From the sequence record MZ311865.1: a DNA stretch of 64,000 bases, one strand, 5' to 3'. This stretch comes from Escherichia phage vB_EcoM_LNA2. Each line of letters starts with the position of its first letter. Within the stretch, counting starts at the first letter, position 1. Below, one piece after another: positions 1 through 6,295 of the stretch. Under the pieces are notes generated by a model that was given only the letters and a program-made list of their open reading frames with translations, ran no database searches and was not told where the DNA came from. A program made the translations under genes and the position numbers.

Positions 1-2277
1 ACACTTACTACTAAATTAATGGGCCTTCGTAATGATGGCGCAATGGTATTACGTCGTTCGCTTGCTATTGGCACAATTACCACTGACGAAAATACTAATA
101 ACTATGGCTCTCCTACTCCAATGGGAGAAAGATATATTGCTTTGGGCGATGCTGCCACTGGTTTAAAATACATTAAGCAGGGTGTTTATGATTTAGTAGG
201 TAATTGGAATTCTGTTGCTTCTATTACTCCAGATAGTTTCCGTAGTACTCGTAAAGGTATATTTGGCCGTTCCGAGGACCAAGGTGGAACATGGATAATG
301 CCGGGAACCAATGCTGCTCTCTTGTCTGTTCAAACACAAGCTGATAATAACAATGCTGGAGACGGACAAACTCATATCGGGTACAACGCTGGCGGTAAAA
401 TGAACCACTATTTCCGCGGTACTGGTCAGATGAATATCAATACCCAACAAGGTATGAAAATTAACCCGGGTATTTTGAAACTGGTAACTGGCGGTGAAAG
501 TATTAGCTTTAATGCCGCAACTGGAAGTATTAATTCTACATTAGCTTTTCGTCTTAATAAAGGCATAATTATTGATGGACCTGATAATCAGGGATTCCAG
601 TTTAACGCCCCGACGGCTGCAGATGGTACTAGAAGTATATACTGGAACAGTGGTACTCGCGCAGGTCAAAACAAAATCCCTGTTACAGTTAAAGTGTGGG
701 GTAATTCATTTAACGCATCTGGCGATCGTTCTCGTGAAACGGTTTTTGAAGTAGCTGATGGGCAAGGTTACCATTTTTATTCTCAACGCGTAGCTCCTGC
801 TCCTGGTTCTACCGTCGGACCTATTCAATTTCGAGTTAATGGTGGTTTATTAACTTCAGGTAGTATTGTTACTTCTGGTTCTATTACAACTGAATCTTCT
901 TTAAGTGTTAATAATGGCATGTCAGTAAACGGACAAGCTAAATTCGGTGGAACAGCTGATGCATTAAGAATTTGGAATGCTGAATACGGCGCAATTTTCC
1001 GTCGTTCAGAAGCATCATTATATATTATCCCGACTCCTAAAGATGCTGGAGAATCAGGCGGTATAAGTAATCTTAGACCATTGATAATAGAACTGAACAC
1101 TGGCACAGTTAAAATGTCGCATGATGTTCATTTAGGAGATTCTGGATCTGGTACAGGATTATTACAAGTAAGTAATAGTCTTAAAACTATTAAAATGATA
1201 TGTCCAGTAACTATTACTGAACGTAATGCAGCGCTTACTCTAGATTCTCCTTCATCTTCTTCTGCTAATTATTTACAGGGTTCTAAAGCTGGAACTAGAA
1301 CGTGGTATGTTGGTCTTGGTGGCTCTGGAAATGATTTATCACTTTATAGTCAATCTTATGGACACGGTCTTGTTATAAGCGATAATTTCGTGGCAATCAG
1401 TAAACCTCTTAAAGTTGGAAATGCTCAATTCGGTACTGATGGTAACATTACTGGTGGTTCTGGTAATTTTGCTAACTTGAATACCACAATAAATAACCTT
1501 AAGACGGATATTGTGTCGAGTTACCCAATTGGTGCTCCGATTCCTTGGCCTACTGATACACCTCCTGAAGGTTATGCCATAATGGAAGGTCAAACATTTG
1601 ATGCTGGCTTGTATCCTAAGTTAGCTGCGGTGTATCCTTCCGGCACTCTGCCTGATATGCGTGGTCAAACTATCAAGGGTAAACCATCTGGGCGTGCTGT
1701 ATTAAGTACAGAAGCGGACGGCGTTAAGTCACATAGCCATAGTGCAAGTGCATCAAGCACAGATTTGGGTACTAAAACTACGTCAAGCTTTGATTATGGT
1801 ACTAAGACGACAAGTAGCTTCGACTATGGTACTAAGACCAGTAATACCACTGGTAACCATAACCATACCGTGAGTGGTAATACTGGTTCCGCTGGTGCGC
1901 ACCAACACGCGCGTTCAGGTCCTCAGGTACAAGGCGGCATACCCACTAGCGTATTCTATGATGGATACAATAGTGCTGGTCCAAACGGCAACGCTAAATT
2001 CACTGCAACCGTGAGCGGTGCTACTGCATCGTCGAATATGGCCAAAACTTCTTCAGACGGCGCCCACACCCATAGTTGGTCAGGAACTACTAGCGCTACT
2101 GGTAACCATGCTCATACTGTGGGTATTGGTGCTCATACCCATTCGGTAGGTATTGGTGCCCACTCTCATTCGGTAGCGATTGGTTCTCATGGCCATACTA
2201 TCACTGTAAATAGTACAGGTAATACAGAAAACACGGTTAAAAACGTTGCTTTTAACTATATCGTTCGTTTAGCATAA
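1..2277 (+). CDS. 37: Long tail fibre distal subunit gp37, C-terminal ~750 aa (5' end outside window)
   Basis: ORF open from nt 1; Gly/Ser/Thr-rich fibre sequence, C-terminal His-x-His boxes, ends ...NYIVRLA as I recall for T4 gp37; followed by gp38 and t. Confidence 0.9.
1771..1842 (+). repeat. Tandem 30-bp in-frame repeat in gene 37 ([10 protein letters not shown] x2.4)
   Basis: [26 protein letters not shown] with synonymous differences between copies. Confidence 0.8.
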
Positions 2278-2283
2278 GGAGAA

Positions 2284-2302
2284 GGGACTTCGGTCCCTTT
2301 TT
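2284..2302 (+). terminator. GGGAC-UUCG-GUCCC hairpin plus U5 between gene 37 stop and gene 38 start
   Basis: Perfect 5-bp stem, UUCG tetraloop, T-run; sits between the AAGGAG SD and the gene 38 ATG. Confidence 0.55.
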
Positions 2303-2307
2303 ATAAC

Positions 2308-2859
2308 ATGAAACTCTATCATTATTATTTTGACACTAAAGAATTTTACAAAGAAGAAAATTATAAACCATTAAAAGGCGTAGGATTTCCGGCTCATTCG
2401 ACACCAAAAAAACCTTTAGACCCTAAAGAAGGCTATGCTGTTATATTTGATGAACGCGAACAAGAATGGGTATATGTTGAAGACCATCGCGGAAAAACAG
2501 TATGGACTTATGATAAGCAAAAAATTGTTATTGACACCCCAGGTGCTCTTCAAAATGTTACTACAGAAGAACCTGGTGAATTTGACATTTGGACCGGTGA
2601 CGGGTGGAAGGAAGATGAAGCATATAAACGCGTAGTTCAACGTGATAAGAAAATTCATGAACTCTATAAATTATTCAGTGTTTTAAGTTCTCTTATTGAC
2701 GCAGAGGTTGCTAATAGAGAAGAAAAACGAAAATTTAAAGAGCTCAAAAAATTCTTTGCTCTTTTAGAAAAACATGAACATCTTGGCGGCGAATTCCCTA
2801 AATTCCCTGACCTTGAAAACAAATCTATTATCAAAGCGATTATAAATATCTTTAAGTAA
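2308..2859 (+). CDS. 38: Tail fibre assembly chaperone gp38 (T4 type)
   Basis: 183 aa, MKLYHYYFDTKEFYKEENYKP... very close to recalled T4 gp38; position after 37. Confidence 0.9.
   Translation: MKLYHYYFDTKEFYKEENYKPLKGVGFPAHSTPKKPLDPKEGYAVIFDEREQEWVYVEDHRGKTVWTYDKQKIVIDTPGALQNVTTEEPGEFDIWTGDGWKEDEAYKRVVQRDKKIHELYKLFSVLSSLIDAEVANREEKRKFKELKKFFALLEKHEHLGGEFPKFPDLENKSIIKAIINIFK
2841..2848 (+). promoter_or_regulatory. T4-type late promoter TATAAATA upstream of holin t
   Basis: Exact TATAAATA about 20 nt upstream of the t start, inside the 3' end of gene 38. Confidence 0.55.
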
Positions 2860-2868
2860 GGAGGTATT

Positions 2869-3528
2869 ATGGCAACACCAAAAGTGTCATTTTCGCCTAG
2901 TGATATTCTATTTGGGTTGCTAGATCGTATTTTCAAAGATAACGCTACTGGAAAGGTTTTAATGTCCCGAGTAGCGGTAATTATTCTTTTGTTCCTAATG
3001 GCACTAATATGGTACAAAGGAAGTATTTTGCTGGATTATTATGTAAGAGCTAAGTATGATACTTATACTGAAATAATCCAAAAAGAACGAGCTTTACGTT
3101 TTGAATCTGCGGCTCTAGAACAACTGCAAATAGTTCATATCTCATCTGGTGCAGATTTTAGTGCTGTGTATTCTTTCAGACCTAAAAACTTAAATTATTT
3201 TGTCGACCTTATAGCTTATGAAGGCAAACTACCTAGCACAATTTCTGAAAAGTCCCTTGGTGGATTCCCGGTGGATAAAACGGCCAATGAATATATAATT
3301 CATTTAAGTGGCCGTCATTTCTCGTCTAAATCAGAATTTGCATTTTTGCCTACAAAATCTAAGACTGCCGAACTTTCTTATATGTATAGTTGTCCATACT
3401 TTAATTTGGATAACATCTATGCTGGAACTGTGACGATGTATTGGTATAAGGGGAATAATATACTTGAGGAAGATCGCTTAGCGGCTATATGCAACCAAGC
3501 GGTCCGAATACTAGGAAGGGCTAAATAA
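2869..3528 (+). CDS. t: Holin T
   Basis: 219 aa, N-terminal TM segment, close to recalled T4 holin; SD GGAGG upstream. Confidence 0.9.
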   Translation: MATPKVSFSPSDILFGLLDRIFKDNATGKVLMSRVAVIILLFLMALIWYKGSILLDYYVRAKYDTYTEIIQKERALRFESAALEQLQIVHISSGADFSAVYSFRPKNLNYFVDLIAYEGKLPSTISEKSLGGFPVDKTANEYIIHLSGRHFSSKSEFAFLPTKSKTAELSYMYSCPYFNLDNIYAGTVTMYWYKGNNILEEDRLAAICNQAVRILGRAK

Positions 3529-3801
3529 TTAGTTGTTAGAATACATCGCTAAATGACGATAAATATTTTCAAAACCTTCATTGAATTCACTAATCAGTGT
3601 TTTCTTTTCTTCGGCAGTTAAATTTGTAATTAGTTTTCTGAACGAATTCTGATTTAGCTGCCGACCATCTTTTTTAATTCCAATCTCATTCAAGAATCCG
3701 ATGAAACTTGCTCGGTCTTCAACAATATCTTCCCTAGAGAATTTAATCAAAATAGAAGCAATAGTAATAATTTCACGTACGATTTCAATGTCTTTATTCA
3801 T
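3529..3801 (-). CDS. asiA: Anti-sigma70 AsiA
   Basis: 90 aa MNKDIEIVREIITIASILIKFSREDIVE... matches recalled T4 AsiA; convergent with t. Confidence 0.9.
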   Translation of the reverse strand: MNKDIEIVREIITIASILIKFSREDIVEDRASFIGFLNEIGIKKDGRQLNQNSFRKLITNLTAEEKKTLISEFNEGFENIYRHLAMYSNN

Positions 3802-5662: not shown

Positions 5663-6295
5663 TCACAGTACATTAGTTACAAGGGTAATGATTTCTTTGG
5701 ACACATTAGGGAAGTCAATGTAAGTATATTTACCACCGATCTTAATCTTAACATCATTTTCAAGAGAAGTAAACAGCTTTGATTCAGTTTCTGACATGTT
5801 GTATGCAAAGATTCTAAGAGCGCCATCTCGACGAATTTCAATTTGGCGAATGCCTAGAACTCGTTTAGCGAATCGAACTTCTAAGTTACTACGGTTTTCA
5901 CCAATTTCTTTAACTTCAACTTTATCTTTAATATTTTCAAAAACAAAGTTTGCTAATTCATGCATTTCAGGAGTAACTCCACGTGCTTTTCTAGTGTTAC
6001 GTTTCTGAAGAAGTTCTGGAGCATTTTCTTTGGCAAAGAGGTCTGCAGCTTTTTGGATAATATCCATTGCTTCGCCTGTTGCTACAAGTCCATCACCGGA
6101 TTTTTCGACTAAACCTTTCTTAATCAATACACCAATGTTAGAGTTAACAACTGATGCATTGTATTCCGCTTCCAGAGCTTCACGGACATTGGCAGCAGTG
6201 GTGAAGTTGTTCTTAATGATATAAACCATTATTGCAGCAGTTTTTTCATTCAGAGCGTTTTCAGAAGCTTTGATGATGTAAGTAACTTTAGACAT
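5663..6295 (-). CDS. motA: Middle-transcription activator MotA
   Basis: 210 aa, MSKVTYIIKAS...GVLIKKGLVEKSGDGL... matches recalled T4 MotA; early promoter upstream. Confidence 0.85.
   Translation of the reverse strand: MSKVTYIIKASENALNEKTAAIMVYIIKNNFTTAANVREALEAEYNASVVNSNIGVLIKKGLVEKSGDGLVATGEAMDIIQKAADLFAKENAPELLQKRNTRKARGVTPEMHELANFVFENIKDKVEVKEIGENRSNLEVRFAKRVLGIRQIEIRRDGALRIFAYNMSETESKLFTSLENDVKIKIGGKYTYIDFPNVSKEIITLVTNVL

Follow-up and report, generated by a model that had tools for sequence, protein, structure and literature searches.

The distal end of the tail-fibre gene

The window analysed here, a 64,000-nucleotide stretch of Escherichia phage vB_EcoM_LNA2 (record MZ311865.1), opens within the gene for the distal subunit of a long tail fibre. 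Frame 1 of positions 1-2277 encodes the C-terminal 758 residues of a gp37-like protein whose reading frame is cut by the left window edge. Pfam profiles match gp37_trimer, Collar and Gp34_trimer domains, and the counterpart in 308Ecol101PP, the closest phage record, is annotated as gp37; an NCBIfam search gave no match for gp37 or gp38. The gene order g37-g38-t is that of phage T4 and of the Mosigvirus phage 308Ecol101PP (Table 1). The genomic backbone is that of a Mosigvirus, with 97.8% identity to AV117 over 12 kb, and no identical record was present in the phage collection searched.

RNA folding places a stable hairpin (dG -14.3 kcal/mol, z = -4.0) between genes 37 and 38. It was detected by folding and not reported by a terminator scan. 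Both T4 and AV117 conserve it, one base pair having changed in a compensatory way. An earlier note on this DNA had taken gp38 for a chaperone of the T4 type and had concluded that the tip of gp37 is the adhesin. The assignment of gp38 holds: it is 66% identical to T4 gp38 over 179 residues (E=2e-90) and matches the Pfam family Caudo_TAP. Because gp38 is a T4-type chaperone, gp37 itself should carry the adhesin, and the argument of the note is supported to that extent.

Table 1. Features of the gene 37-gene 38-gene t locus, in window coordinates.
Feature	Position	Strand	Details
Gene 37, 3' part (long tail fibre distal subunit)	1..2277	+	Last 758 codons and TAA stop; left edge open
Collar/knob domain D10, first part	1516..1728	+	Residues 506-576, equivalent to T4 811-881; 2XGF alignment, borders from PMC6957217
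D11 stem, up-arm	1729..1908	+	Residues 577-636 (60); T4 882-931 (50); boxes 1-3: HSH, HNH, HQH
Decapeptide units, three; predicted outer-strand modules of the proximal stem	1762..1851	+	T4 has 2 units
Tip (head) subdomain	1909..2046	+	Residues 637-682 (46); T4 932-959 (28), unrelated sequence; predicted receptor-binding cassette
D11 stem, down-arm	2047..2223	+	Residues 683-741 (59); T4 960-1009 (50); boxes 4-8: HTH, HAH, HTH, HSH, HGH
Nonapeptide units, three; predicted inner, box-bearing partners of the decapeptides	2116..2196	+	TVGIGAHTH / SVGIGAHSH / SVAIGSHGH; T4 has 2 units
D10, second part, C-terminal return strand	2224..2274	+	Residues 742-758; one residue differs from T4
Hairpin with UUCG loop, between g37 stop and g38 start	2279..2302	+	RNA folding
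Gene 38, T4-type tail-fibre assembly chaperone	2308..2859	+	183 residues; T4 gp38 match, Pfam Caudo_TAP
Gene t, holin	2869..3528	+	219 residues; Pfam Phage_holin_T, E=4e-92

A needle with eight histidine boxes

The gp37 fragment contains exactly eight His-x-His boxes, at residues 578, 620, 634, 689, 703, 712, 721 and 730 (nucleotides 1732-1740, 1858-1866, 1900-1908, 2065-2073, 2107-2115, 2134-2142, 2161-2169 and 2188-2196), which are the eight that the earlier note had listed, in the same order. None is found in the remaining 577 residues of the 758-residue fragment, and 16 of its 22 histidines lie within the final 189 residues. Shuffling the protein 5000 times gave a mean of 0.61 boxes and a maximum of 5, compared with the 8 of the real sequence. 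All ten histidines of five of the boxes are invariant in an alignment of 68 homologous sequences. The Pfam family PF03335 (Phage_fiber, a 14-residue repeat) matches D11 in six stretches within residues 570-745, scoring 26.2 bits against a cut-off of 20, and just ahead of the first box residues 511-558 match PF07484 (Collar; 42.5 bits, cut-off 24).

Chain A of PDB entry 2XGF (T4 gp37 residues 785-1026; chain residues 2-242) matches residues 481-758 with E=1.5e-87. [quoted passage not shown] The T4 needle is an insertion within D10. With these borders transferred from T4, the span 1729-2215 singled out in the earlier note is almost exactly D11. The layout differs from that of T4 in only three respects: ten additional residues in the up-arm (a decapeptide after box 1), a longer tip that cannot be aligned, and nine additional residues in the down-arm (a box-bearing nonapeptide). 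The up- and down-arms are thus 60 and 59 residues long, against 50 and 50 in T4. All seven T4 boxes have aligned counterparts and the extra eighth box lies within the nine-residue insertion. Judged by this homology, nucleotides 1729-2223 encode D11 of gp37, an ordinary T4-like needle, and the 2XGF match, with every T4 box accounted for, argues for the metal-coordinating needle of a T4-type long tail fibre that the earlier note had proposed.

The in-frame 30-bp tandem repeat with synonymous differences that had also been described is present in the up-arm. Tandem Repeats Finder reports it with a period of 30 at 1768-1835 (2.3 copies, 78% matches, score 80); in codon register its units are 1762-1791, 1792-1821 and 1822-1851, with the decapeptide consensus D[LY]GTKTTSSF. 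Units 1 and 2 share 21 of 30 nucleotides and differ by five synonymous and one non-synonymous codons, and in pairwise comparison of the units 17-21 of 30 nucleotides are alike, with longest identical runs of 8-14 nucleotides. The down-arm carries a second tandem repeat of 27 bp, with units of similar divergence (Tandem Repeats Finder 2122-2190, period 27, 2.6 copies; 2116-2196 in register), which encodes the nonapeptide [ST]V[GA]IG[AS]HxH; the earlier note had listed the boxes of this stretch but had not flagged the tandem repeat in its DNA.

The decapeptides occupy residues 588-617, in the proximal half of the up-arm, a span some 20-50 residues before the tip that ends about 20 residues short of it. 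They had been taken as part of the receptor-binding tip; the T4 domain alignment instead puts them in the proximal stem and, as far as homology mapping goes, outside the receptor-binding domain. In T4 the residues that contact the receptor map to the tip (PMC6957217; PMC5221442).

Two published T4 contacts, G921-F970 and G964-H929, have residue sums of 1891-1893, equal to 882+1009, which indicates that the arms run in symmetric antiparallel register. If the T4 register is applied here, the down-arm boxes at residues 712, 721 and 730 would align with the boundaries separating consecutive decapeptides, a layer-by-layer placement derived from arithmetic and these two contacts. An AlphaFold2 monomer prediction for residues 481-758, from the 68-sequence alignment, gave a mean pLDDT of 50.3 and a pTM of 0.20 and is unusable as a model; such low scores are expected because a single chain of an intertwined trimer was modelled. 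Its predicted strands (residues 611-614, 622-628, 691-697 and 705-708) are symmetric around the centre given by the homology mapping, an observation not counted as evidence.

Coupled arms and a divergent tip

Box spacings were parsed in about 197 distinct needles, drawn from 120 close homologues, 150 sequences that represent clusters at 50% identity, 80 IMG/VR loci and 6 phage-record loci, among them T4, 308Ecol101PP, AV117, AV110 and AV112. If n denotes how many 9-residue spacings a down-arm has, the gap between boxes 1 and 2, in which the decapeptides lie, measures 12+10n residues across this set. The observed gaps are 22 (n=1), 32 (n=2, T4), 42 (n=3, this phage), 52 (n=4), 62 (n=5) and 73 residues (n=6); one gap of 41 and one of 73 are a single residue off the rule. 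The 14-residue spacings likewise occur in the same number on both arms, being 0, 1 or 2. T4 has two modules per arm and this phage three, giving seven and eight boxes, respectively.

The modules of the two arms match in all but one of these needles. The exception is L004, whose g37-g38-t locus is intact and whose three decapeptides face only two 9-residue spacings. Strict matching of the arms is therefore strongly favoured without being an absolute requirement for folding, unless the L004 allele is defective. At least nine matched architecture classes were found, from which seven or more coordinated changes can be deduced; the sequences are related and recombining, and these counts are not counts of independent events. 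No statement of the pairing rule was found in the literature searched, and it may already stand in Bartual 2010 or Tetart 1996/1998.

Sequence conservation differs sharply along the needle. Averaged over 1500 randomly drawn pairs, identity is 0.78 in the collar, 0.61 and 0.60 in the two stems, and 0.25 in the tip. In P0002, P0006, P0122 and P0123 the stems are 85-97% identical to those of this phage and the tips merely 22-37%. Conserved stems carrying divergent tips suggest that tips are swapped as cassettes, within the interval bounded by the final box of the up-arm and the first of the down-arm.

Substitution rates were compared among five phages of one tip type (this phage, 308Ecol101PP, AV110, AV112 and L003). 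The pN/pS ratio of the tip is about 0.3-4, and at least 0.65 in nine of ten pairs, compared with 0-0.2 for the stems; the up-arm has a pN of 0-0.09 against a pS of 0.13-0.56. At synonymous sites the tip has diverged less than the stems. Fisher tests of non-synonymous against synonymous changes, tip versus stems, gave p=4.5e-4 for AV110 and p=1.5e-3 for 308Ecol101PP, with small counts in the tip for each pair (1-5 synonymous and 2-14 non-synonymous changes) and pairs that overlap. This apparent excess of amino-acid change in the tip is suggestive rather than decisive.

Taken from the sequence comparisons, host recognition most likely resides in the 46-residue tip between the arms, a segment to which the earlier note had given no separate mention. 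For AV110, AV112 and AV113, which have the tip type of this phage, OmpC has been proposed as receptor from phylogeny only, with an alignment to T4 gp37 (PMC10844046). OmpC dependence has been demonstrated experimentally for AV117, but its tip is of another type, and a receptor assignment by way of AV117 was rejected. Since the tip cannot be aligned with that of T4, the residues by which T4 contacts OmpC and LPS (PMC6957217, PMC5221442) are not transferable either.

Needle length, host specificity and known systems

We consider it highly probable that this gp37 forms a matched-module needle one layer longer than that of T4, in which the decapeptide repeat is structural and specificity resides in the tip. 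The chain would run outward along the up-arm, form the small tip and return along the down-arm, and at each box the three chains would together hold a single metal ion on the fibre axis through six histidines, so that eight boxes predict eight metal sites compared with the seven iron sites of T4. In the proximal stem each up-arm decapeptide would lie level with one down-arm nonapeptide, and the distal stem would consist of 14-residue box units in equal numbers on each arm. With three proximal modules instead of the two of T4, the needle would gain one layer and one metal site, adding roughly 2-3 nm as estimated from residue counts. The decapeptide repeat would then act as a length-setting element under purifying selection; its duplication is an old one, preserved in the protein sequence. 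The tip would determine host specificity, as a cassette that is swapped while the stems on either side stay conserved and that gathers amino-acid changes, and the role of gp38 would be confined to folding of the trimer.

The earlier note had instead regarded the decapeptide repeat as a likely site of slippage or recombination altering host range. Members of the family do differ in copy number, having between one and six units, and relative to T4 this phage has precisely one more 30-bp and one more 27-bp unit, placed in a way that fits unequal crossing-over between units; L004 provides one unbalanced allele, and duplications in T4 gene 37 are reported, in work cited by PMC7002106 (Tetart 1996), to widen host range to Yersinia. 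Against this, units that have diverged so far, with such short identical runs, are a poor substrate, and the architecture of three modules on each arm is kept, L004 aside, in every one of the 12 relatives whose up-arms reach 85% identity. Even L004 has three decapeptides and differs only on the down-arm, this being the one case among the ~197 needles in which copy number changed on one arm alone; elsewhere the arms change together. The repeat also lies well before the tip, in a stretch where pN is close to zero. Because the copies have diverged synonymously and their number is constant in close relatives, the repeat does not behave as a slippage hot spot, and we think it improbable that changes in its copy number set host range. 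A slippage-prone contingency repeat was likewise rejected, near-identical DNA copies being absent and copy number not being polymorphic among close relatives.

It is also conceivable, though we regard it as unlikely, that needle length is itself adaptive, matched modules letting the tip reach its receptor through surface layers that differ in depth and so affecting host range indirectly. The discrete lengths from n=1 to n=6 are consistent with this, as are the occurrence of n=2 or n=3 with quite different tips, in T-even phages and in prophage side fibres, and a gp37-like tip described as 'similar but truncated' among the BASEL phages (PMC11990801), but the variation in n could be neutral or could hitch-hike with tip cassettes. 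We are similarly doubtful that the needle is a quantised modular ruler, its length changing only in matched pairs and tuned to the depth of the host surface layers; in such a ruler each metal-stapled layer would come from a decapeptide with its box-bearing nonapeptide or else from two paired 14-residue box units. Least credible of all, to the point of being negligible, is that the boxes belong to the shaft only and that the fibre is capped by gp38 as a separate adhesin, the arrangement of T2, T6 and S16. Most T4-type phages, some Mosigvirus members included, do use a gp38 adhesin (PMC3157838; PMC10844046), a protein of about 260 residues with glycine-rich motifs (PMC3157838; PMC7917993), but here the gene after g37 encodes 183 residues of the chaperone type, gp37 ends in a complete T4-type D10/D11 module, and it is without the autocleaved C-terminal chaperone region of fibres that dock gp38 (PMC7917993). 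A fibre end of the T2/T6/S16 type was rejected on these grounds.

If the matched-module needle is correct, host specificity in this phage should be sought in the 46 codons at 1909-2046 and not in the decapeptide repeat. The architecture of any T4/lambda-type fibre tip could be read from sequence alone, by counting box spacings to obtain its layers and predicted metal sites, and chimeric fibres would be engineered by keeping the arms balanced or by exchanging the tip between the last up-arm and first down-arm box. A modular ruler, were it real, would supply a simple design rule for making T4/lambda-type fibre tips longer or shorter, and host range could adapt along a second axis in addition to tip sequence. 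In other respects the structure is well understood and the phage group well sampled.

The closest structural precedent is T4 gp37 D10-D11 (PDB 2XGF), a collar followed by an iron-stapled needle. The seven T4 boxes are kept in position, the final 26 residues differ at one position, and both the order g37-g38-t and a gp38 with 66% identity are shared. This phage differs in its one extra up-arm decapeptide and one extra box-bearing down-arm nonapeptide, hence eight boxes for seven, and in a tip of 46 residues against 28 that is not alignable.

Among close relatives, the needles of 308Ecol101PP, AV110 and AV112 were read and have the same three modules on each arm and the same tip family; JS09, HX01, APCEc01 and Yersinia phage phiD1 are likened to this phage by DNA similarity only. 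Matching phage records number roughly 290. The best related records show 94-96% DNA identity over nucleotides 1400-2900, with AV112/AV113 at 91.4%. Tip identity to this phage is 74-85% in AV110, AV112 and 308Ecol101PP and 98% in P0001. Differences from the gp37 of Mosigvirus and related phages are concentrated, at the amino-acid level, in the tip, and the upstream shaft (window 1-1400) is a different mosaic.

The lambda Stf-type side fibres of enterobacterial prophages, members of the 'T4- and lambda-based RBP family' (PMC9659904; PF03335), share the collar, the deca- and nonapeptide modules, the box-spacing rules, a very similar C-terminus and a Tfa-type chaperone, with 60-70% identity over the final ~250 residues. 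They differ in having unrelated shafts on siphovirus or P2/Mu-type tails, other tips and a wider range of modules (n=1-6). The fibre ends of T2, T6 and S16 resemble this one in genome position and in serving to recognise the host at the long tail fibre's far end, but they are unrelated proteins with no box needle, in which a monomeric gp38 of about 260 residues caps a cleaved gp37 (PMC3157838; PMC7917993).

The region belongs to a family already well known, that of the T4/lambda-type fibre tips (PMC9659904), and GenBank already contains alleles nearly identical to it. To that family the present analysis adds a needle with one matched module and one predicted metal site more than T4, the coupling of the arm repeats family-wide, and a tip that appears to be a fast-evolving cassette.

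Shaft, needle and tip of gp37

Judged by DNA identity, the shaft and the needle of gp37, the distal long-tail-fibre subunit, are different mosaics. The shaft (window 1-1400) has only 47-84% identity to the closest Mosigvirus record, 308Ecol101PP, and window 1500-3528 has 89-100% identity to the same phage. The best overall match, at 92%, was phage EP02SG, and none of the phage records compared gave a good match across the entire gp37 gene. Within the needle, among phages of the window's tip type, divergence at synonymous sites (pS) is 0.03-0.15 in the tip (1909-2046), lower than the 0.13-0.56 of the flanking stems (1729-1908 and 2047-2274). This lower divergence suggests a more recent spread for the tip cassette than for its flanking stems.

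Unusual needle architectures

Only one of the approximately 197 distinct needles parsed was unbalanced, that of the IMG/VR locus L004 (UViG_3300030021_000020, 1501-2118), in which three decapeptides in the up-arm face only two 9-residue box spacings in the down-arm. The locus has intact g37, g38 (chaperone) and t (holin) genes; its unbalanced needle may result from a recombination that is tolerated, belong to a defective allele or reflect an error in the assembly. A second unusual protein, the 938-residue cluster representative P0121, contains two collars: the first, with an up-arm that ends abruptly within the tip, is followed by approximately 260 residues of shaft and then by the other collar, whose needle is complete. 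This looks like either the product of two fused prophage fibre genes or a chimera created in the assembly.

Genomic context and the g37-g38 hairpin

Across the 64-kb window (1-64000) no tRNA genes were found, nor any Rfam families at gathering score. Homologues of asiA and motA form an ordinary early-gene context of T4 type.

Features downstream of g37 in the window
Feature	Position	Strand	Basis or details
Stable hairpin GAGAAGGGAC-UUCG-GUCCCUUUUU	2279-2302		Between g37 stop and g38 ATG; folding -14.3 kcal/mol, z = -4.0
asiA (anti-sigma factor) homologue	3529-3801	-	Synteny (position, gene order) with T4 and 308Ecol101PP
motA homologue	5663-6295	-	Synteny (position, gene order) with T4 and 308Ecol101PP

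Some related records carry a terminator annotation at the position of the hairpin. T4 and the Mosigvirus relative AV117, which has a different tip, also keep the hairpin, with a compensatory change of an A-U to a G-C pair. In the window, the g38 ATG has an AAGGAG motif 26 nt upstream. In the 'split' ribosome-binding site of T4 gene 38, a hairpin draws the Shine-Dalgarno sequence near the start codon, an arrangement that the g37-g38 hairpin resembles. The hairpin may also act as a terminator.
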